DNA of 35,777 nucleotides from a virus. Taxonomy: Duplodnaviria; Heunggongvirae; Uroviricota; Caudoviricetes. The translations under genes and the position numbers were made by a program. Positions 2,838 through 22,367 of the stretch are shown one piece after another; position 1 is the stretch's first letter, and each line of letters opens with the position of its first letter. The notes under the pieces are model-generated. The model was not told the DNA's origin and made no database searches. It was given only the letters and a program-made list of their open reading frames with translations. The stretch covers positions 1-35,777 of IMG/VR virus record IMGVR_UViG_2778261389_000005. One strand, 5' to 3'.

Positions 2838-5501
2838 TTATGCCTGAGTACGCAGCGCTTCAAGGCGGCGCAGGTCGAAGTCGTTCAGTTCGTCGGTGTA
2901 GTCTTCGGTGATCGGCGCAGGCCAGCAGTTGGTGTCATAAGCCTTAGCCAGGGCGCGCATGGTTTTCTGATATTCCTCTCGGCCAAGCGCCAGCAGTTCC
3001 TCCGAAGCCTCAATGACCGCAACCCAGTGGTAACCCTCGTCTTTGTTAACGAAGATCCAGAAGAACTGATCAAAGTCAGCGACGCTGCAGTACATGCCCG
3101 CGCTGAGGTGGTAATCGCGGTCGATGATTTCCCGGTGCAGCTTGGCGCGCAGGCCTTCCTGCTTAACGCGGCCCATGCTGATCGTTTTCAGGTCAACGCC
3201 GATACGAACGCCGTTTATTTCAACCTCAAGGTCCGGGCGTACACGGACTTCAAGGCCAGTTTCGTCGTCCATACCGAAGTAACTGGTTTCGACTGAACGG
3301 GAAGGGTGGCGCAGTAGTTTTCCGGCCGATTCATGGTTAAGCAGGGCCTGCTGAATTGCCGTGGCCAGCGCCAACTGCTCACTGGACAGGATGGTTTTCC
3401 CGGCAACGCTATCTCGCCATTCCTGCTCGAACTCATCAGCGAAAATGGCATCCGGATTCACCGCGCGGATCGCCGCCTGCAGTTCCTCTTTCTTGCCTGT
3501 GAGCTTCAGTTGCTCGGCCTTTGGCTTATCCGCATTAAATTCGCGGATGAACGCCTTCATGGAGTCGGTAGTGGTAAATGCTCCCTCCGGAACGCCCGGG
3601 AACACCGCGAACTCTTCGTGAAGCTTTTCCGGTTCCAGTGCCATCGTGTGAGACAGGCTACCGAACGTCAGCGCCTCGCTGCTCTCGCGACGGATTGTCT
3701 TGGTCACGTGGCGACCGTGATAGAACATCAGGCTAACGCGCGCATCTTTCAACTGGGTGCTGCTGATCCCGTTCGCTGCGTGGTAAATGTTGTTCGGCAG
3801 GCCTTCATAGCGGCCCGGTTCGAAATAGGCAGGGTATTCCGGCGTGCTGGCGATTTCCTCCGGTGCTTCGGTGGTCATTTCCGGCTGTGAGTCGTTCGCC
3901 AGCTCCGGCGCCACGGCAGCCAGAACCTCAGCCGGGGTCAGGGAAGCTGTTTGCGGATCAGCTGCATCAGAGCTTTCGCCTGGTGGAACCGTGTTACCAG
4001 TTTCTCCTTCCGCCGGGTCAGTCTCTTCCATCTGCACATCGCTGGTGGTCTCCTCTGTAACCGGTGAACGGTCATCTGTTTGTGGTTGTTTTTCGCTCAT
4101 CAGGCCATCAATGGAGAACATGCCGCCGCCGAGGTTAGCGACCTGAGGCTGGCTATCAGTGGAGGTTGCTTCAATGTTTGCTGGGTGAAGCCTTTCATCA
4201 GCAGCGCGCTGGCGCATCAGATCCACAACAGAAAGCGCAGGTTCAGGTCGTTTTTGTTCACCGGCGTTCAACTCGCCATGAAACTCTTCCAACACTTCGT
4301 CAACCTTCTGCCATGCCGCATCTACCATTTCCTGGGTAACTACTTCCTGCTTATGCTCGCTATTGCCATAAATAGGCAGCAACTCAGTCGCAGCATTAAA
4401 TTCAGCCGTCATCGTCTGGTTTACGAACTCCAGATGAGCAACCGGCGTTAGGTGGATATTCTCAGGCGCGATGCGCACCAGGTTGAAGATGGCCGCGCGG
4501 TTAACAGCCAGAACGCCGGGCTGGTTGCGCAGGATTTTGCTCCATGATTTCCATGGTTCTTCTTTGTTCGCGACAATCTCCTTGGCGCGGCGGTGGATGC
4601 TGCCCGGGATTTCCAGATGGTTGAAGTCCATAGGCAGAAGGGCACATGCAATCTCTAAATCGAGAGTGTCAAGGGTATGGTATGCATCAGGTCCACGGTC
4701 AGTGACATAACCGCCGTTGGCATTGGTTCCGGAATCAGTACGCTGAACACTACTGATGTGATTACCGGCAGCCCATTCACGCGCCAGGATGCCACGGTCA
4801 ATGTAATCAGTCGCCGCCCACATTCTGGTGAAACGGAGTACCAGCGCGAGTTCGTGACGCTTGTCCTGGCTGAACACTTTGCGAATGGCATCGGTGTAGC
4901 GCCACAGGTCTTTGGTGTCGTAACCCTTCACTTCCGGGCAGTTCTCAGCAGCTAACAGCAAGTTCTGGACGTAACTGTTATCAGTGTCCATCTCCAGCGC
5001 GCCGATAGCTTCGTACTCTTCGCGGGTTACGTGGTGGCGCAGTTCGTCGGCGGTGAACTGGGAAAGCAGTTGCTTACGAAACGGCATCTGCACTACCGGG
5101 TAGAGGGTTGAGTCGTCGTCGTGTTCGTCCAGCGTGATGCCAGCGGTTTCTGGCAGCGTTGACTCAGTAGTTATGTGACTATCAACGGTCTGAGCCGTTT
5201 TCTCGTCAGAGTTTTCAGCTGTGACTTTTGGCAGCCAGGTGCGGTCATCGTTCTGCAGTTCGTAGCGTTCGCACCAGGTGTAATCCACTGCGCCTTCTTC
5301 CGGCAGGTCGTCATATACCGGGAAATCGGTGCGGATTGGTTTGGCATAATCTTTACCGCGGCCAGTTTCTTCAATTCCGGCTTCTTCCAGTGCCACATCG
5401 AGTTGGAGATTGGCGCGCGCTACACTTTTCGCAGTGAACCAAATCACTGCATCTTTCTTGCCAGACTTCTGACTGGCTTTTATCAGATGGAAAAATTCCA
5501 T
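2838..5501 (-). CDS. RecE-like exodeoxyribonuclease VIII
   Basis: 887 aa; long acidic low-complexity N-terminal region and a C-terminal domain with PD-(D/E)XK-like motifs (RPDLEV, GVDLKT); paired with the annealing protein. Confidence 0.65.
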   Translation of the reverse strand: MEFFHLIKASQKSGKKDAVIWFTAKSVARANLQLDVALEEAGIEETGRGKDYAKPIRTDFPVYDDLPEEGAVDYTWCERYELQNDDRTWLPKVTAENSDEKTAQTVDSHITTESTLPETAGITLDEHDDDSTLYPVVQMPFRKQLLSQFTADELRHHVTREEYEAIGALEMDTDNSYVQNLLLAAENCPEVKGYDTKDLWRYTDAIRKVFSQDKRHELALVLRFTRMWAATDYIDRGILAREWAAGNHISSVQRTDSGTNANGGYVTDRGPDAYHTLDTLDLEIACALLPMDFNHLEIPGSIHRRAKEIVANKEEPWKSWSKILRNQPGVLAVNRAAIFNLVRIAPENIHLTPVAHLEFVNQTMTAEFNAATELLPIYGNSEHKQEVVTQEMVDAAWQKVDEVLEEFHGELNAGEQKRPEPALSVVDLMRQRAADERLHPANIEATSTDSQPQVANLGGGMFSIDGLMSEKQPQTDDRSPVTEETTSDVQMEETDPAEGETGNTVPPGESSDAADPQTASLTPAEVLAAVAPELANDSQPEMTTEAPEEIASTPEYPAYFEPGRYEGLPNNIYHAANGISSTQLKDARVSLMFYHGRHVTKTIRRESSEALTFGSLSHTMALEPEKLHEEFAVFPGVPEGAFTTTDSMKAFIREFNADKPKAEQLKLTGKKEELQAAIRAVNPDAIFADEFEQEWRDSVAGKTILSSEQLALATAIQQALLNHESAGKLLRHPSRSVETSYFGMDDETGLEVRVRPDLEVEINGVRIGVDLKTISMGRVKQEGLRAKLHREIIDRDYHLSAGMYCSVADFDQFFWIFVNKDEGYHWVAVIEASEELLALGREEYQKTMRALAKAYDTNCWPAPITEDYTDELNDFDLRRLEALRTQA

Positions 5502-8469: not shown

Positions 8470-8862
8470 TTACTCGGCATCGCCCTTAATCCGCCGCCCC
8501 ATATATTTGGCGTACAGATCGTCGAGTTCCTTCAGGCGCAGTGATACCGCCTTAAGAACTCCACCCTGATCCTCTTCGGGGAGTTGACGGAAAAGGCGTA
8601 AAAGCTCTTGCTCATTACTTTTTAATCCATCATTGGGCCCTATATCCTGCCCCAAAACCCAGGCTAAATTCACACCAAGCGCATCAGCTAGCTTAAGTGC
8701 GGAGTTTTTCCCAATAGTTCCCCTTACAAACCAGTTGTTAACCGACTGGGATGTTACGCCACAAATTCTGGCCAGATCTGCTTTTGAGAGATGTTTACTA
8801 TTCGTGATCTCATTGAGTCGTCTGACCTGTGGGTTATCTGATTCGTGTGTATTTTTTCTCAT
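8470..8862 (-). CDS. DicA-like HTH (XRE) repressor, paralog 2
   Basis: N-terminal HTH (LSKADLARICGVTSQSVNNW) and C-terminal LRLFRQLPEEDQ...LRLKELDDLYAKYM; about half identical to the upstream gene; alternative GTG start at 8877. Confidence 0.7.
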   Translation of the reverse strand: MRKNTHESDNPQVRRLNEITNSKHLSKADLARICGVTSQSVNNWFVRGTIGKNSALKLADALGVNLAWVLGQDIGPNDGLKSNEQELLRLFRQLPEEDQGGVLKAVSLRLKELDDLYAKYMGRRIKGDAE

Positions 8863-8881
8863 GTACAAGAGTATCACTTAG

Positions 8882-9265
8882 CTAATCAGCATCGCCCCTG
8901 ATTCTGCGATTCATGTACTTGGCATATAGTTCATCGAGTTCCTTCAGACGCAGGGAGAAGATCCTTATCATATTCTGCTGTTCTTCTTCCGGTAACTGTC
9001 TGTAGAGCTCCAGAATACGTTGTTCATCAGGCTTAAGACCATCCTTCTCTCCAACATCCTCACCAAGTAGCCAGGGGACGGACACCCCTGCAGCGTCAGC
9101 AACCGCTAATGCAGAACTTTTGCTGATTCTTCCTGTTTTGAACCAACTGGAAACAGCTTGCTTACTGACGCCAGCAACCCTGGCCATCTCTGTTTTAGAG
9201 AAACCTTTCCTGTTCAGTTCTGTAAGCCTGGAAATCAGCTCATTTGTCATTGTTTTTTCGCTCAT
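8882..9265 (-). CDS. DicA-like HTH (XRE) repressor, paralog 1, probable CI analogue
   Basis: 127 aa; HTH plus LPEEEQ C-terminal module resembling DicA; divergent from cro-like gene across operator region. Confidence 0.75.
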   Translation of the reverse strand: MSEKTMTNELISRLTELNRKGFSKTEMARVAGVSKQAVSSWFKTGRISKSSALAVADAAGVSVPWLLGEDVGEKDGLKPDEQRILELYRQLPEEEQQNMIRIFSLRLKELDELYAKYMNRRIRGDAD

Positions 9266-13099: not shown

Positions 13100-13549
13100 A
13101 TGACAACTAACCACCCGGCGCACGGTCATGTATCACTCGATCGCCTGCACCAGATACGCGAAATACTCAGCAACGCAGCAGCACAAAGCGACGGCGGTAA
13201 TCTCGGCTACGCAATGGCTGATGCTGTGAAGGTGATTGATGGAGTTCTGGAGTCGATGGCCCGTGAGCAAGTACGCCGTGAGCATGCTACATGGTCACAG
13301 GCTACTTTCGGCGATGTCGGTCCAGTTGGTCCGCTGAAGCACCTTTCCAAAGAAGCGCTCGAGGCGGCAGCTGAACCAAGTGACCTTACCGAATGGGCTG
13401 ACATGCAATTCCTGTTATGGGATGCGCAACGTCGTGCCGGTATCAGTGATGAGCAGATTACCCTGGCGATGGTAGAAAAGTTGGCGGTTAACAAACAGCG
13501 CGAATGGCCTGAGCCGAAAGATGGTGAGCCGCGTCTGCACATCAAGTAG
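13100..13549 (+). CDS. DUF550-like protein (possible MazG-like nucleotide pyrophosphohydrolase domain)
   Basis: 149 aa; C-terminal ...EWADMQFLLWDAQRRAGISDEQ...REWPEPKDGEPRLHIK resembles DUF550 proteins of enterobacterial prophages. Confidence 0.5.
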   Translation: MTTNHPAHGHVSLDRLHQIREILSNAAAQSDGGNLGYAMADAVKVIDGVLESMAREQVRREHATWSQATFGDVGPVGPLKHLSKEALEAAAEPSDLTEWADMQFLLWDAQRRAGISDEQITLAMVEKLAVNKQREWPEPKDGEPRLHIK

Positions 13550-13602
13550 ACTCTTATGGATAATTGAACCCTAATTCATTATGAACATAATAAGGAGTCC
13601 TT

Positions 13603-13923
13603 ATGTCTTACATAATGCCTGAAAAAGGCCAAATGAATGAATATGGAATTGAGGCTTTCGGGATCCCGCTTACCAGTAGGCATGGAGTTGCGATGGAACT
13701 GTCTCAAATGCTACGTTTTTCTTACTATGTAGCTTCAGTTGGGCTTGTAAAATGTATTGAAAGTGTCTTCTATGATTCAGGCTCTTGCTGCTGTAATTTT
13801 GAATTTATTCCCGGGTTTAATGAGTATTCGGAGGAGGCAGAAAAAATTAGACAGTGCGCGCTACGTTCGATTGGGCAATTTGAATGGTTCGGTATGATTG
13901 AACACGGCGACATCAACGGCTAA
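13603..13923 (+). CDS. Hypothetical protein in AT-rich island
   Basis: 106 aa; AAGGAG RBS; cysteine cluster SGSCCCNF; low GC relative to flanks; own terminator. Confidence 0.5.
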   Translation: MSYIMPEKGQMNEYGIEAFGIPLTSRHGVAMELSQMLRFSYYVASVGLVKCIESVFYDSGSCCCNFEFIPGFNEYSEEAEKIRQCALRSIGQFEWFGMIEHGDING

Positions 13924-13952
13924 GTGTTTAACTCCAATAGCAAACGAATAAA

Positions 13953-13976
13953 AGCCTCTAAGTTAGAGGTTTTTTA
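13953..13976 (+). terminator. Rho-independent terminator
   Basis: CCTCTAA-GT-TAGAGG hairpin followed by TTTTTT. Confidence 0.55.
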
Positions 13977-14000
13977 TGTCTGAAAGGTAGCATTACCAAG

Positions 14001-14150
14001 TCTATGGTTGCCTAGCTCAGTCAGGCTTGTATTTGGTTGCTTAGCAATCAACTCATGCGACATGAGCGGGATCTTTCTAATCATCATTTTCGGTAAATGA
14101 TTTTGGTTGCTTGGTTGACAAAATCGAGAAAATGCGAAAATATATGGTTT
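14001..14150 (+). promoter_or_regulatory. Promoter/operator region of accessory operon with repeated TGGTTGC motif
   Basis: TGGTTGC at 14005, 14034, 14104 plus TGGTTGA overlapping -35 TTGACA (14115-14120); palindrome TCATG-CGA-CATGA at 14053-14065; AT-rich -10-like sequence near 14139-14146. Confidence 0.4.
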
Positions 14151-14178
14151 ACGAATTCCAAAAAAAGCGAAACTTGAA

Positions 14179-14829
14179 ATGAGCGACAACCAGTTAGCAC
14201 CTTGTTGGGAATTTCAGCCTTACCTTGCTGAAAGCAATGTTCGTCAGTTGTTAGCGGAAATTGCTAATGTACTCGAGCAATTGTACTACCACAAACACAC
14301 ACTGGACAGTAACTGGTCCGAAGGTGTAAGGGCTTATGATTGGGTCAGAAATCATTTGATTCAAAGTGAAGGGACACTGCCGGGTCTGGAAATGGTTTCG
14401 AAGGGACTGGATTATGTGGTTGCGTTAAATAAAGTGCCGCTGCAGTTCTCCAAAGATTGCATTAATAACCCGAAGAAGAAGCATCGCCTTCTTCGAAATA
14501 GGGTGGAGCATGAGCAACTTTCATTGTTCGGTGAAACTGAAGCCGAGCAAGATATTACATGGCGGATCATCGCCGAACCATTTTTATCCGATGAAGAAGA
14601 TGGCGAGCTGGAATCAACATTGCCTCGCTGGGAAGTGGCTTTAGTTGGGTTTAACGCATATGGTGCCCAGATCAGTATGGTTTCACACCAATCTACTGCT
14701 TCAGCGCCGCTTATGTCTCTTGATACCAACACTCTTCCGGATGAAGCTGAGATTGGCAAAGCCTCTCTTCGCCGCCGTAAAAAAGATCAAGATTTGGATG
14801 TGAGCAGTAATGGAACATCAAGTGAATGA
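14179..14829 (+). CDS. Uncharacterised protein, partner of HTH-peptidase; candidate toxin/effector
   Basis: 216 aa, no domain recognised by eye; 3' end overlaps the next gene by 20 nt; acidic and basic C-terminal tail. Confidence 0.55.
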   Translation: MSDNQLAPCWEFQPYLAESNVRQLLAEIANVLEQLYYHKHTLDSNWSEGVRAYDWVRNHLIQSEGTLPGLEMVSKGLDYVVALNKVPLQFSKDCINNPKKKHRLLRNRVEHEQLSLFGETEAEQDITWRIIAEPFLSDEEDGELESTLPRWEVALVGFNAYGAQISMVSHQSTASAPLMSLDTNTLPDEAEIGKASLRRRKKDQDLDVSSNGTSSE

Positions 14830-15913
14830 CTTTGCTGAGTATCGTGGGGATAAGCTCAAATTAGCCAGAATGGCTGTTGGGCTCTCCTGCGAAGAGTTAG
14901 CGGAGAAAATTGGTAAAACAAAACAATTCGTTAGCAAATTGGAAAAAGGGTTTAAACCATCAGAACAGTTGTTAGAATTAATCTCATCTGCGCTGATGAT
15001 TAAATCTGATTTCCTATTTACTGAACGAAAATATGCTTTAGAAAGCGATGTTTGCCATTTTCGGAGTAAAAAATCGAGAACCCAAACATTAACCAATAGT
15101 GTTCTGGCAAGGGCGGAGATTCTTAACATTATAATCTCTGCCGTTGAGGGAGAAATCGAGTTTCCTGATGTTTTCATACCTGAGCACCCCGGTGCTGAAT
15201 TGCTGACTCCAAATGATATTGAACGTGTAGCGGAAGACTGCAGAAGAGCATGGAACTTAGGGCTGGGACCTATATCCTCAATGGTCAAACTGGCTGAGAG
15301 TTTGGGGGTTATTGTTGCTCATGTGACAGGAGTGGATGACCGCGTAGATGCTTTTACTGTTCATAACAACAGGCCAGTAATCATCCGAAATAACGTCAAA
15401 AAGAGTATATGCAGATTCCGATCAGATTTAGGTCACGAATTGGGGCACTTGGTTATGCACGAAGGTATAACCACAGGAGATAAAGTGACTGAATCGCAAG
15501 CGGATCGTTTTTCAAGCGCGTTGCTAGTTCCTCGATTGTCCTTTATTAAAGAGTTTCCCCGTATACGAGGAAGACAGTTCGATTGGAACGCCCTAGTTGA
15601 GTTTAAGCTTCGGTGGAAGATTAGTCTTAAAATGTGCATTTACCGAGCAACAACTCTAGGCCTGCTGACGCAGGAGCAGGCAAGAACAGGTTATATGCAT
15701 TTGAACTCTAAAGGATATACGAAAGTTGAACCAGGAGATGAATTTATTCGCCCGGAAGAACCGAGTATGTTAGCTGAGGCGATTGAAATGCTGGATGATG
15801 CAACATGGATGAGCATTCTCATGAAAACTGGTTTAAGCCAGGAGTTGGTTAGGGAGTTATTCTCGGTAAACCGCCCACTGTCAAATCCAAGAAATCTACT
15901 TCAACTGGTTTGA
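14810..15913 (+). CDS. HTH-XRE regulator fused to ImmA/IrrE-family zinc metallopeptidase
   Basis: N-terminal HTH (LKLARMAVGLSCEELAEKIGKTKQFVSKLEKG) and HEXXH motif (HELGHLVMHE) in a COG2856-like domain; 367 aa. Confidence 0.8.
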   Translation: MEHQVNDFAEYRGDKLKLARMAVGLSCEELAEKIGKTKQFVSKLEKGFKPSEQLLELISSALMIKSDFLFTERKYALESDVCHFRSKKSRTQTLTNSVLARAEILNIIISAVEGEIEFPDVFIPEHPGAELLTPNDIERVAEDCRRAWNLGLGPISSMVKLAESLGVIVAHVTGVDDRVDAFTVHNNRPVIIRNNVKKSICRFRSDLGHELGHLVMHEGITTGDKVTESQADRFSSALLVPRLSFIKEFPRIRGRQFDWNALVEFKLRWKISLKMCIYRATTLGLLTQEQARTGYMHLNSKGYTKVEPGDEFIRPEEPSMLAEAIEMLDDATWMSILMKTGLSQELVRELFSVNRPLSNPRNLLQLV

Positions 15914-15928
15914 CTCAAAGCTTGTAAT

Positions 15929-15952
15929 AAACCCGCTATATGCGGGTTTTTT
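15929..15952 (+). terminator. Rho-independent terminator
   Basis: CCCGC-TATAT-GCGGG hairpin followed by TTTTTT. Confidence 0.6.
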
Positions 15953-16076
15953 CTTTCTGGTAGCGCGCTGTGGTAACGCTGTGCCTCCAGCGCTCGCTGA
16001 GGCGCTGGTGCGTGCTAATTTGCCGGAGCTTTGTCAGCAGAAACAAATAGCGGCGTAATAAAACATTGCTAATTCA

Positions 16077-16103
16077 ACCCGCTACGGCGGGTTTTCTTTT
16101 TTT
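16077..16103 (+). terminator. Rho-independent terminator, second copy
   Basis: ACCCGC-TACG-GCGGGT hairpin followed by TTTTCTTTTTTT; similar to terminator at 15929. Confidence 0.6.
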
Positions 16104-16165
16104 AATACTGACAGAAAATTAACAATTTGTGCTCTTAAAACGTTGATCATTTCCGCGCATAGGTA

Positions 16166-16183
16166 TACTGTATAAAAACACAG
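16166..16183. promoter_or_regulatory. LexA (SOS) box upstream of dinI
   Basis: CTGTATAAAAACACAG matches CTGT-N8-ACAG consensus, about 20 nt before the dinI start. Confidence 0.6.
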
Positions 16184-16203
16184 TAAATGCAATGGGGGCC
16201 ATT

Positions 16204-16437
16204 ATGAAAGTTGAATTAACCATTGATCGCATGAAAGAACTTCCTAAAGGCGCAGTACCAGCACTGGAGAAAGAACTGCTTAAGCGCCTGAATGATCACT
16301 ATGACAATTGCAGGCTCACAATCCGCCGTGCCGGGGCCGATGGGTTAAGTGTTTTTGGTGGTGACAAGGACGATAAAAAGAAAATTGAATCAATCCTCCA
16401 GGATACCTGGGAAAGCGCTGACGACTGGTTTTATTAG
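16204..16437 (+). CDS. dinI: DinI-family DNA damage-inducible protein
   Basis: MKVELTIDR...AVPALEKEL...LSVFGGDKDDKKKIESILQDTWESADDWF closely parallels E. coli DinI; alternative ATG at 16192. Confidence 0.8.
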   Translation: MKVELTIDRMKELPKGAVPALEKELLKRLNDHYDNCRLTIRRAGADGLSVFGGDKDDKKKIESILQDTWESADDWFY

Positions 16438-16554
16438 AATTGCGCTTAAGGCTGGCGCGCATTTTTCAGAATACCGCAATTTGCGTAACCCTCTGATGCT
16501 GCTGCCGACAATCTTTAATCGCGTCTGTTAGTCGCTCGAAGGGAGAACATAAAT

Positions 16555-16803
16555 GTGAGTGATTCAGCTTTGCAAACGTCAGAAGACAACTGGTATGACA
16601 TTGTAAGAAGGTCTGACGGCTGCGTGGTGTTTAGCTTTCCTTCATCGGGCAGGCATCTAATTTATCGCGTCAATGGCATGGTTTCTATGCGGCCTTTGCT
16701 GGATGATGAAGAGGTCTTTACTCCTAATGGTTTTATGCAGTTTATTCACCGTCTCGGCTACCGGGTAACCCCACCTTCTGATAATATGAAATCAACGGTC
16801 TGA
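16555..16803 (+). CDS. Hypothetical protein
   Basis: 82 aa, GTG start with GGGAGAA RBS. Confidence 0.45.
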   Translation: MSDSALQTSEDNWYDIVRRSDGCVVFSFPSSGRHLIYRVNGMVSMRPLLDDEEVFTPNGFMQFIHRLGYRVTPPSDNMKSTV

Positions 16804-20590: not shown

Positions 20591-20995
20591 ATGCAAATAG
20601 ATCAAGAATACCTTAAAGGTTTGCTCGAGGCTTTCGAGGCATCGGATTCACCTGATACCGATATTATTCGATTAAAGGATTTAGGGTTCAATTGTGAAAC
20701 TGACACATTTGTGTTTCATATGCGTTTGCTTGAGGATAGAGGGCTGATTATCAGGAGTGATGGAGAGCCCGGCTTTGGTGCTATTCAGTCTTTAGACGGA
20801 ATGACTCACTGGGCTGTAATGCCCTTGCGATTGACCGCGATGGGGCATGACTTCTTGGATGCTCTCCGTAACAAAGAGGTTTGGGCAACATTAAAAACCG
20901 GATTCAAAGATGCCAGTATGGGCACGCTGATGACAGTTTCGAAGGAGCTGTTTAACCGAGCTCTAGCTAAGCAACTTGATAAAATGTTCGACTAA
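20591..20995 (+). CDS. Hypothetical protein
   Basis: 134-aa ORF with GGAGGGG RBS, followed by terminator. Confidence 0.5.
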   Translation: MQIDQEYLKGLLEAFEASDSPDTDIIRLKDLGFNCETDTFVFHMRLLEDRGLIIRSDGEPGFGAIQSLDGMTHWAVMPLRLTAMGHDFLDALRNKEVWATLKTGFKDASMGTLMTVSKELFNRALAKQLDKMFD

Positions 20996-21018: not shown

Positions 21019-21071
21019 GTCAACTTTATGAGCAAACTGATCTTAATTACTGTAACTAGGTGGTCAATGAT

Positions 21072-21710
21072 ATGGCAACGCTTAAGGACCTTTCCAGTCA
21101 GTTAAGACAGCTGCAGAAGCAAATACCGTTTGCGACTGCCCAGGCTATGACTAAAGTGGTTCGCCAGATAGAAGCGGCCCAAAAAACAGCATTTGAGCGG
21201 AATCTGGATAATCCAACACCTTTTACAGTTAAATCGGTTGGGTCAGTTGGTGCCAGGAAAAACAGCCTTCGTGCGAAGGTGTTTGTTCGTGATACTGCTG
21301 CTGGTTACCTTGAACCCTTCGAGTTCGGCGGAGAGCACAAGCTTAATGGTAGTGCTTTGCTTAACCCGAAAGACATAAAGCTTAATAAATACGGCAACCT
21401 GCCGCGTAATAAGCTCTCTCAGCTCAAAGCAAAGGAAAATGTATTCGTAGGTGAGGTGGATGGCGTTAACGCTGTCTGGCAGCGTAAGAAACCGATGAAA
21501 GCTAAGAAGCGACGGGCCAAGCGCTCCGCTAATGGGACGCGAAGACCGAAACGTAAACAGCGTTCTCCAAAGCTTTTGATCCGGTTTGGTGATGCGCTAC
21601 CTGTGACTCCAGTGCTGGGGTATATGGATAGGGCCCGTACCATGGCGAACGCACTGCTACCGTCTGCTTTAAATCAGGCGATAGCAGAAGCCATCAGGAC
21701 GGCAAAATAA
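21072..21710 (+). CDS. Hypothetical protein with highly basic segment
   Basis: 212 aa from ATG 21072 (AGGTGG RBS); KKPMKAKKRRAKRSANGTRRPKRKQRSPK stretch. Confidence 0.45.
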   Translation: MATLKDLSSQLRQLQKQIPFATAQAMTKVVRQIEAAQKTAFERNLDNPTPFTVKSVGSVGARKNSLRAKVFVRDTAAGYLEPFEFGGEHKLNGSALLNPKDIKLNKYGNLPRNKLSQLKAKENVFVGEVDGVNAVWQRKKPMKAKKRRAKRSANGTRRPKRKQRSPKLLIRFGDALPVTPVLGYMDRARTMANALLPSALNQAIAEAIRTAK

Positions 21711-21720
21711 AAGCAGTAAC

Positions 21721-22224
21721 TTATAAGTTAATTTCGCAAGCTTTTATGAAGCTGTTTACTGCAGTTGTCGATCCAGAAACATTGGCTGACATGGAATGCT
21801 GGTTTCCGCCATCCTTTGTTTGCACACCAACTAACACTTTGGATTTCGCCCCCTGAAGCTGCTTAAGCACTGTTTTTAGTTGGTCCGCGTCATCCGATTG
21901 AATCTGGAGGCTCTGAACATTACGTCTTGAAAGGGTAGCATCGAGCTTCACTGCGGTATTCCCGTCGACCTTCATTATCAGGTCCATTGGTACCTCTGAT
22001 AGTGATTCGGTGCTTTTATCCATTTCAACGTATGCCGCCGATAGCTTTTCTTTAGTGCAGTCAAACACAATGGCGCCATTGTCGGATGAAACCTCGCCAA
22101 GCATCATTGCTTTCTTACCACCAGAGAAAAGGTCATCTTCAGTATTAGTTACCCACTGGGCATGAGCAATTGGTGATGCCAGCACTGCGGCTACGAAAGT
22201 TATTTTGATTATATTGTTACCCAT
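21721..22224 (-). CDS. Secreted protein of unknown function (signal peptide), opposite-strand accessory gene
   Basis: 167 aa from ATG 22224 with AAGGAG RBS; N-terminus MGNNIIKITFVAAVLASPIAHA-Q resembles a Sec signal peptide. Confidence 0.55.
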   Translation of the reverse strand: MGNNIIKITFVAAVLASPIAHAQWVTNTEDDLFSGGKKAMMLGEVSSDNGAIVFDCTKEKLSAAYVEMDKSTESLSEVPMDLIMKVDGNTAVKLDATLSRRNVQSLQIQSDDADQLKTVLKQLQGAKSKVLVGVQTKDGGNQHSMSANVSGSTTAVNSFIKACEINL

Positions 22225-22367
22225 TACATTCTCCTTGTATTGAATAGGAATAATCATAGTCGGAGCGAATGGTCGAAGCCATTAAAAAAATGGGTCCTTC
22301 CTGAGACTTTTGTAAGGTACGGGCATTGCGCGCCGCGGTGTTTTCCTAGCTACAACTTTCAGATTTG

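Follow-up and report, generated by a model that had tools for sequence, protein, structure and literature searches.

Among the closest known systems to the gene pair considered here is the experimentally verified RosmerTA of E. coli OLC-716, whose two genes form an operon headed by the toxin gene and which is carried on a P4-like satellite, defends against phages and could not be transformed in a form deleted for rmrA (Millman et al. 2022, bioRxiv 10.1101/2022.05.11.491447). RmrTA of Gordonia phage Kita, also a phage-borne Rosmer pair, defends against BASEL coliphages Bas54 and Bas59, a narrow anti-phage effect, and its toxin has a membrane-localised C-terminus and depolarises the membrane (Ernits et al. 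2023, PMC10440598). In Pectobacteriaceae, rmrA was essential by Tn-seq and clpX was essential only in Rosmer-carrying strains (10.64898/2025.12.09.693261). The Rosmer-family pair RipAB (Spr1630/Spr1629) of Streptococcus pneumoniae likewise needs ClpX and has an antitoxin of XRE plus ImmA-like architecture, and its cytoplasmic toxin RipA acts on DnaN, the sliding clamp, and has an input into competence (PMC12795458). An M78 peptidase is also paired with an XRE helix-turn-helix (HTH) in ImmA/ImmR of ICEBs1 and in CapP/CapH of CBASS. In these, however, the protease is a different protein from the repressor, and what they control is an element or system nearby; RmrA, in contrast, unites both in one protein and has a toxin of its own as partner.

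The window, by which we mean the whole stretch of 35,777 nt that was analysed, belongs to an E. coli lambdoid prophage integrated beside kch/cls. Two of its genes, situated in the nin region, probably constitute a RosmerTA-type two-gene toxin–antitoxin/abortive-infection cassette that forms an autonomous accessory block ("moron") of this prophage; carriage in a prophage had been proposed in the initial annotation and was borne out. Both open reading frames of that annotation were also reproduced in coordinates, strand and 20-nt overlap (ATGGAACATCAAGTGAATGA), which indicates a single operon. The features of the locus are as follows.

13603-13923, + strand: ORF106 (106 aa), an accessory gene in the same AT-rich island, matching phrog_29216 at 1.3e-75
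13950-13974, + strand: ORF106 terminator hairpin AAAAGCCTCTAA/TTAGAGGTTTTT (inverted repeat I2, 92% complementary; terminator scan), left bracket of the putative Rosmer cassette
14000-14045, + strand: two 17-nt direct repeats, GTCTATGGTTGCCTAGC / GTATTTGGTTGCTTAGC (repeat family D3), specific to the upstream spacer of this allele
14112-14139, + strand: conserved repeat 1, TGGTTGACAAAATCGAGAAAATGCGAAA (repeat family D1), with an invariant TTGACA at 14115-14120
14145-14172, + strand: conserved repeat 2, TGGTTTACGAATTCCAAAAAAAGCGAAA, 33 nt 3' of repeat 1 and ending 6 nt short of the rmrT start codon
14179-14829, + strand: rmrT (216 aa), putative Rosmer toxin gene of PADLOC subtype PDLC03929
14810-15913, + strand: rmrA (367 aa), putative Rosmer antitoxin/regulator gene
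15929-15949, + strand: intrinsic terminator 3' of rmrA, AAACCCGC-TATAT-GCGGGTTT plus T-run (terminator scan: 8 pairs, 5 of them GC)
15960-16093, + strand: remnant of a DNA methyltransferase gene, C-terminal part (15960-16058), followed by a separate terminator (16076-16093); outside the Rosmer system

Base composition set the island clearly apart from its surroundings, the GC content being 42.7% between 13550 and 15991 as opposed to 56.4% in the left flank and 54.8% in the right flank, in agreement with the higher AT content noted initially. Bracketing of the gene pair by terminators was likewise upheld, since a terminator scan found hairpin plus T-run sites at approximately 13950-13974, at 15929-15949 and at 16076-16093; seven terminator-like sites were present in the interval 13300-16500, compared with 2.9 ± 1.6 in shuffled sequences. 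No Rfam match near gathering scores indicated a structured RNA in the island. The interval 13560-16105 had originally been described by its gene pair, which stands, but ORF106 and the methyltransferase remnant within the same interval had been missed. The remnant, annotated as a pseudogene by RefSeq in a near-identical E. coli locus, is the scar of the slot occupied by the island, and homology to phage mEp237 picks up again at 15992.

ORF106 was located upstream of the cassette in all eight contexts with an identical toxin and was absent beside every diverged cassette examined; it was therefore rejected as an obligatory third component of the system. Its product matched none of the Pfam or PADLOC models. 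One homologue of ORF106 occurred without a Rosmer system (locus L028) and another beside a different Rosmer subtype (locus L029), where it was followed by the same hairpin as at 13950-13974. ORF106 thus recurs near two Rosmer subtypes.

Assignment of the two proteins was provided by PADLOC models. The product of the downstream gene matched RmrA model PDLC03943 best, at 1.6e-106, and 13 other RmrA models besides, while that of the upstream gene matched RmrT model PDLC03929 at 2.4e-26 (residues 7-207 on model positions 5-193 of 198). Together, these matches mark the pair as Rosmer of an already catalogued subtype, with no new effector, and no structural difference was noted between the pair and the PADLOC/DefenseFinder subtype formed by RmrT PDLC03929 and RmrA PDLC03943. 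Thus, the initial annotation was right to place the pair in the two-gene class that joins an HTH-M78 peptidase to a toxin, with Rosmer as its named example, whereas its view of the 216-aa protein as unassignable and possibly a novel effector has to be given up.

The domain structure of RmrA was as first read from the sequence, namely an XRE-type HTH fused to an M78/ImmA zinc peptidase. Pfam matches above gathering thresholds were obtained for HTH_3 at residues 16-62 (nt 14855-14995; 3.2e-09) and for Peptidase_M78 at residues 176-280 (nt 15335-15649; 1.3e-10). The HExxH motif was intact as HELGH at residues 209-213 (nt 15434-15448) and was followed by a downstream Glu within an E228-xx-AD-xF motif. 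Alignment with the experimentally verified RmrA of OLC-716, which is likewise HTH plus M78 and is 29% identical (E 3e-35), confirmed an intact catalytic site in that both HELGH and E..AD.F were conserved. Weaker matches were noted to PADLOC capP (2.2e-14) and capH (3e-05) and to NCBIfam antitox_spr1629 (6.8e-46), the last being below the equivalog cutoff (157 bits as opposed to 335).

An M78/ImmA domain could also belong to an anti-repressor protease that controls prophage induction by cleaving short HTH-only repressors, and two CI-like repressor genes in the window (8470-8877 and 8882-9265) indeed lack an S24 self-cleavage domain. We nevertheless give this reading of the 367-aa protein almost no credence. 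The ImmA/ImmR arrangement, in which the protease adjoins a separate HTH repressor of the element, was not found here: rmrA lies approximately 5.5 kb from the immunity region with its repressor genes (8470-9265), occupies variable slots unlinked to that region and encodes an HTH of its own. It is, moreover, always coupled to an RmrT gene, and the cassette travels among prophages with differing immunity regions (RacR-type at locus L003, another HTH repressor at locus L002) as well as non-prophage loci. An adjoining LexA-box/DinI operon offers an alternative anti-repressor route, and Gifsy-type anti-repression usually proceeds by way of such an operon. For the Rosmer reading, ImmA/ImmR and CapP/CapH may instead serve as a mechanistic analogy for protease-mediated removal of an HTH repressor.

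The toxin family was defined by an alignment of 60 members, all of which matched PDLC03929 (best, 3e-72). Other searches with RmrT were uninformative. Pfam matched other members only sporadically, with no hit common to two, and the window protein not at all; NCBIfam gave no match, and the best E value in a PDB profile search was 0.62. RmrT of the window (216 aa) was unrelated in sequence to the verified RmrT of OLC-716 (239 aa), homology between the two being rejected at a BLASTP E of 0.93 and an hhalign probability of 0.1. Remote homology between RmrT subtypes was rejected as well, since comparison of profile A4 with profile A6 (the L029-type toxin) gave an hhalign probability of 0.09, in view of which a 9/14 match between N-terminal helices was attributed to chance.

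RmrT is acidic (pI 4.9) with no transmembrane segment (maximum Kyte-Doolittle 19-residue mean, 0.84) and, unlike the Kita toxin, has no hydrophobic segment; it appears to be a soluble, cytoplasmic protein and not a membrane toxin. The AlphaFold2 model (pLDDT 84, pTM 0.75) consisted of an α/β core and a charged, disordered C-terminal tail, in which LP.EAEI…LRRR is conserved. The core appears to adopt an αβββαβ topology that weakly resembles the restriction-endonuclease fold, from which we would guess, with low confidence, that the target may be nucleic acid or nucleic-acid machinery. The catalytic D…(D/E)xK of PD-(D/E)xK enzymes on β2/β3 was not conserved in the 60-sequence alignment, D78 being variable and position 89 either Q or R; the only positions conserved in at least 90% of members were D43, G49, E110 and R129.

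That the 216-aa protein carries no recognisable catalytic motif would also accord with a reversal of roles, in which the HTH-peptidase is the toxic effector and the 216-aa protein restrains it or acts as a sensor. A precedent of sorts is PD-λ-2, in which the Xre-peptidase alone is toxic on overexpression and is rescued by the upstream gene (Vassallo et al. 2022, PMC9519451). That system, however, consists of three genes of which the first is HigB-like, as opposed to the two genes of the window. Deletion of rmrA from RosmerTA was unobtainable, rmrA was the essential gene in Tn-seq experiments, and the RmrA homologue RipB antagonises RipA (PMC12795458). Reversed roles are therefore considered very improbable, and the upstream gene is taken as the probable toxin gene in what follows.

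The region upstream of rmrT had been described as promoter-like with repeated TGGTTGC motifs, and three copies were indeed present within 106 nt (14005, 14034 and 14104). Across the window this heptamer occurred at chance level (5 observed, 6 expected), although its TGGTT core was locally enriched (5 copies in 191 nt compared with 0.33 expected; Poisson P = 2.5e-5). In diverged copies of the cassette, conservation began only at 14112, so that two of the three TGGTTGC copies fall outside the conserved regulatory region; on this ground TGGTTGC was rejected as an operator and the claim that it is a conserved regulatory motif did not hold. The D3 repeats at 14000-14045 were likewise not retained in copies of approximately 80% identity.

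The element that was conserved is a direct repeat of GGTT(G/T)AC…GCGAAA, 33 nt apart and overlapping the TTGACA −35 sequence, and it is probably the RmrA operator. All 12 upstream regions compared contained GTTGAC (17 copies as against 0.46 expected), and pairs or triplets at a spacing of 31-33 nt also occurred in distant members from Yersinia, Xenorhabdus and locus L014; neither GTTGAC nor CGAA of the repeat varied between E. coli, Yersinia and Xenorhabdus. Direct copies of GTTGAC also precede the different Rosmer subtype of L029, the RmrA of which is 34% identical, in contrast with the OLC-716 promoter, which is without GGTTGAC repeats and serves genes that do not overlap. Repeat 1 (14112-14139) would thus comprise the −35 element and candidate operator site 1, and repeat 2 (14145-14172) the second candidate operator site, spanning the start of the transcript and its leader. 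GTTGAC holds most of the −35 consensus, so its conservation may in part reflect promoter function and not repressor binding. A consensus promoter scan called no σ70 promoter at 14115 or elsewhere upstream of the toxin gene, and no convincing −10 hexamer was found; the case for a promoter here follows from the conservation of TTGACA.

A more speculative proposal, which we think rather doubtful, is that RmrT of the PDLC03929 type is a cytoplasmic effector with a degenerate restriction-endonuclease-like fold and a non-canonical site (D43, R51, E110, R129 and E133) that attacks nucleic acid or a replication or transcription factor, and that the GGTTGAC direct-repeat operator, together with the HTH of RmrA, makes up a conserved "chassis" for exchangeable, mutually unrelated toxins, as a comparison of the window with L029 suggests. 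If true, the mechanism of RmrT would be distinct from those of the membrane-depolarising and DnaN-targeting Rosmer toxins.

Comparison of copies that were approximately 80% identical revealed sharp edges at 14112 and 15913. The cassette unit is therefore the 1.8 kb between these positions, comprising a conserved 67-nt leader and the two genes. This subtype was present in 237 of 5,426 complete E. coli genomes (approximately 4%), including strain 83972 and ST1193 isolates, and at least 1,000 public contigs encoded an RmrT of identical sequence. In contrast, tblastn against INPHARED disclosed no homologue of RmrT in 50,697 sequenced phage records, so carriage appears limited to prophages and chromosomes. 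Besides the window, the gene for RmrA lay 3' of the toxin gene in 17 of 17 distinct toxin-family neighbourhoods examined. This adjacency was kept down to approximately 20% toxin identity in all contexts examined. Within Enterobacterales and outside them, rmrT and rmrA were inherited together, their reading frames either overlapping or abutting.

The position of the cassette varied widely. Prophages of Serratia, Xenorhabdus and Yersinia carried it in differing slots, and the slots noted were after hokD, between Q and the holin gene, before a DUF1367 gene (annotated NinB-like in mEp237), beside tail-fibre/invertase genes, and adjoining a NACHT gene or a large helicase gene. The cassette is thus mobile between prophage slots and defence islands.

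Such a distribution bears on whether the pair is a plain addiction or stabilisation module that retains the prophage in its lineage and imposes a conditional requirement for host ClpXP, with no genuine function against phages. The essentiality of rmrA by Tn-seq (10.64898/2025.12.09.693261) and the function of RipAB in competence and not in defence (PMC12795458) speak for such a module, as does the E. coli E101 prophage toxin–antitoxin module, which was found only via clpP essentiality (10.1101/2020.05.25.114553) and which later papers group with systems that have a zinc-peptidase antitoxin (Rosmer). We judge this explanation unlikely, since two Rosmer systems challenged with phages (OLC-716 and Kita) were both protective and since the cassette is found in classic prophage accessory/defence slots and elsewhere beside defence-type NACHT and helicase genes; addiction and defence can, moreover, coexist. 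The ClpP-dependent E101 module itself (toxin WP_001179380.1) could not be tied to the family of the window, its accessions differing from those of the window, the 80%-identical allele and OLC-716. The position of the T46S suppressor of E101 corresponds to W46 in the toxin family of the window.

Returning to the preferred reading of a RosmerTA-type cassette, the toxicity of rmrT and its neutralisation by rmrA are expected by analogy with other Rosmer subtypes, as is a function of the PDLC03929 subtype in defence or superinfection exclusion. The HTH of RmrA would bind the GGTT(G/T)AC…GCGAAA direct repeats, 33 nt or three helical turns apart, and since these cover the −35 element and transcript start, RmrA would auto-repress the operon. 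RmrA would also neutralise RmrT post-translationally, through binding, M78 proteolysis or both; related Rosmer systems require ClpX or ClpP for this step. When a sensitive phage infects the cell, the balance between RmrA and RmrT would be upset, perhaps because the HTH cleaves itself on receipt of a signal, for which CapH/CapP and ImmA/ImmR offer a parallel, or perhaps by loss of a labile antitoxin, and free RmrT would arrest the lysogen before the phage cycle is completed.

These findings add little to the catalogue of defence systems, in that Rosmer is established and the subtype is annotated automatically by existing defence HMMs. The PDLC03929 subtype was catalogued computationally, and no experimental test of it was found in the searchable literature; the locus of the window offers a tractable example, with a compact 1.8-kb native cassette, a clearly bounded promoter/operator and a soluble, uncharacterised toxin. 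More generally, "unknown" proteins encoded beside HTH-M78 genes should be screened with defence-system HMMs before they are called novel.

The two open reading frames at 14179-14829 and 14810-15913 were placed exactly by the initial annotation, both being on the + strand with an overlap of 20 nt. As had also been proposed, the 367-aa product of the second combines a helix-turn-helix with a zinc peptidase (HTH_3 at residues 16-62, Peptidase_M78 at residues 176-280, both above Pfam thresholds), and its catalytic site is intact, with HELGH at residues 209-213 and the downstream motif E228-xx-AD-xF. This protein matched the PADLOC RmrA model PDLC03943 (1.6e-106) and thirteen other RmrA models. The 216-aa product of the first, previously regarded as unassignable and perhaps a novel effector, matched RmrT model PDLC03929 over almost its whole length (2.4e-26) in the PADLOC scan. 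A toxin family with 90 representatives, almost all of them close to 200 aa in length, emerged when 1.84 billion cluster representatives were searched with a profile, and the same RmrT model was matched by all 60 of the 60 aligned members (best 3e-72). Given these matches, the pair, suspected earlier of being a defence or toxin-antitoxin system, is assigned to Rosmer (RosmerTA), as rmrT and rmrA of a catalogued subtype. Since both proteins are picked up by standard defence HMMs and identical sequences occur abundantly in public data, the finding is already known in kind and subtype. The literature that could be searched held no experiments on toxin activity, trigger or neutralisation mechanism for this subtype.

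The high AT content noted earlier was borne out by a GC content of 42.7% for 13550-15991 versus 56.4% and 54.8% for the flanks, as were the bracketing terminators, seen as hairpins with T-runs at about 13950-13974, 15929-15949 and 16076-16093. Terminator-like sites between 13300 and 16500 numbered 7, compared with 2.9 ± 1.6 in shuffles. Two further features, absent from the initial annotation, were found in the interval that it had marked:

13603-13923, + strand: ORF106 (phrog_29216), with a promoter-like site upstream and the terminator at 13950-13974 after it
15960-16058, + strand: DNA methyltransferase gene, C-terminal remnant only, with a separate terminator at 16076-16093

Homology with phage mEp237 restarts at 15992, beside this remnant, which suggests that the island displaced most of a nin-region methyltransferase gene. 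Directly upstream of the island is a DUF550/dATP-dGTP pyrophosphohydrolase gene (13100-13549); on the left, homology with other phages breaks at its stop codon. In eight of eight contexts of the identical toxin, this gene was present together with ORF106 and the cassette. ORF106, which encodes 106 aa directly upstream of the cassette, contains no known domain, and among 5.8 billion proteins its homologues form only 5 clusters. An 82%-identical homologue (1012-1332 of locus L029), with the same terminator hairpin after it, precedes a Rosmer system of another subtype (RmrT of PDLC03933 type, RmrA of PDLC03947 type); one of 85% identity (4001-4321 of locus L028) has no adjoining Rosmer. ORF106 could be a marker of a hotspot flank or a gene loosely linked in function.

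Carriage by a prophage was confirmed, the window being E. coli lambdoid prophage DNA integrated beside kch/cls. The AT-rich immunity region contains the following genes:

8470-8877 and 8882-9265, - strand: two short HTH genes of CI type in tandem, encoding 135 and 127 aa
7460-7933, - strand: HicB-family gene, just beyond this pair

Neither CI-like repressor has an S24 domain. This region differs from that of an otherwise near-identical E. coli locus, and the comparison shows the prophage to be a mosaic. A second AT-rich region after Q (20591-20995, 21060-21710 and 21721-22257 (-)), in which a DUF2513 gene is accompanied by two ORFs without Pfam or PADLOC assignment, may be another accessory-gene slot. 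A loose LexA-box pattern matched twice in the window (0.43 expected). One match, CTGTATAAAAACACAG at 16168-16183, precedes a DinI-family gene (16192-16437) by 9 nt, and after that gene comes an 82-aa ORF without known domain (16555-16803), an arrangement similar to the LexA-controlled dinI/anti-repressor induction module of the Gifsy type. The other, CTGTTCATAACAACAG at 15357-15372 inside rmrA, is probably due to chance.

The TGGTTGC motif, noted earlier in the promoter-like region, is not the conserved one; its count was at chance level window-wide, and two of the three upstream copies fall in allele-specific spacer. The conserved element of the leader is a direct repeat, 33 nt from start to start, of TGGTTGACAAAATCGAGAAAATGCGAAA (14112-14139) and TGGTTTACGAATTCCAAAAAAAGCGAAA (14145-14172); GTTGAC, CGAA, GGTT and GCGAAA are invariant across the E. 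coli, Yersinia and Xenorhabdus copies. GTTGAC was present in 12 of 12 toxin-locus upstream regions (160 nt each), with 17 copies versus 0.46 expected from the rest of the same loci. Its direct repeats are 31-33 nt apart in Yersinia, Xenorhabdus and the distant family member L014; loci of the E. coli type have GGTTTAC as the second copy. The same arrangement precedes the different subtype of L029, where the toxin is unrelated and RmrA is 34% identical to that of the window. We infer that the leader repeat is an operator for the RmrA HTH, overlapping a TTGACA −35 element, with the caveat that GTTGAC itself largely coincides with the −35 consensus. A consensus promoter scan called no promoter at the repeats, and a −10 element was not definable.

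Rosmer was defined by Millman et al. (bioRxiv 10.1101/2022.05.11.491447) as a zinc-peptidase antitoxin with a toxin of unknown function, and their verified system came from E. coli OLC-716. RmrA of that strain is 29% identical to RmrA of the window (E 3e-35) and shares its HELGH and E..AD.F motifs, whereas the RmrT proteins are unrelated. This agrees with a published account in which Rosmer combines one protease-type antitoxin with differing toxins (PMC10440598). Family membership and the intact peptidase site are shown at the sequence level; the steps of a mechanism were drawn from published work on Rosmer and by analogy with ImmA and CapP. The RmrA HTH would repress the operon and RmrA would neutralise RmrT post-translationally, probably with participation of ClpXP; clpX or clpP becomes essential where modules of this kind are present (Rosmer-related literature). 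Millman et al. could not obtain a ΔrmrA mutant. Two other readings, that polarity is reversed as in PD-λ-2 and that RmrA acts like ImmA to control induction of the prophage, are unlikely in view of the essentiality data for rmrA and the independence of the cassette from immunity regions. Phage infection would break neutralisation and the freed toxin would abort the infection; the main rival, a pure addiction module with no part in defence, is judged rather unlikely.

RmrT has no sequence relative in Pfam, NCBIfam or PDB. Its lack of a hydrophobic segment and pI of 4.9 set it apart from RmrT of Gordonia phage Kita, which depolarises the membrane, and we concluded that it is a soluble cytoplasmic effector. 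The AlphaFold model, built from a 60-sequence alignment, has a confident core (pLDDT 84, pTM 0.75) with predicted elements in the order α18-34, α51-62, β70-74, β80-83, β86-92, α108-115, β127-135, β150-158 and β164-171; beyond these, the C-terminal tail lacks regular structure. The scaffold is possibly degenerate endonuclease-like; near-invariant family positions are D43, G49, E110 and R129, and canonical endonuclease catalytic residues are not conserved. That the system couples a non-canonical endonuclease-fold toxin to a conserved operator/RmrA chassis is a tentative and rather doubtful reading.

The whole island was found nearly identical in 5 of 5,426 complete E. coli genomes and the cassette proper (14112-15913) in 237, including strain 83972 and ST1193 isolates, with 231 records at 80-90% identity. 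The identical toxin occurs on at least 1,000 public contigs, and relatives in its 90% cluster come from Klebsiella, Salmonella, Lelliottia and Enterobacter. Homology between the window allele and the approximately 80%-identical E. coli allele starts at 14112 (TGGTTGACA) and stops at, or no more than about 18 nt from, the rmrA stop codon, and therefore the mobile unit is a 67-nt leader plus the two genes. The cassette follows hokD in O55:H7-type prophages; in Serratia it separates Q from the holin gene, in Xenorhabdus it precedes a DUF1367 gene (NinB-like per the mEp237 annotation), and in Yersinia its neighbours are tail-fibre and invertase genes. At L026 (5049-6651) it immediately adjoins a NACHT/NB-ARC protein gene, and at the non-prophage locus L014/L015 (152-3738, 7957-8609) the same subtype has a DNA_pol_A-containing operon on one side and a 1,732-aa DEAD/UvrD helicase gene on the other; both surroundings look like defence-island neighbourhoods. 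In every case an RmrA-type gene followed the toxin gene, even at toxin identities of about 20%. The two genes are obligately paired, and the cassette is an autonomous, mobile unit with a conserved leader.
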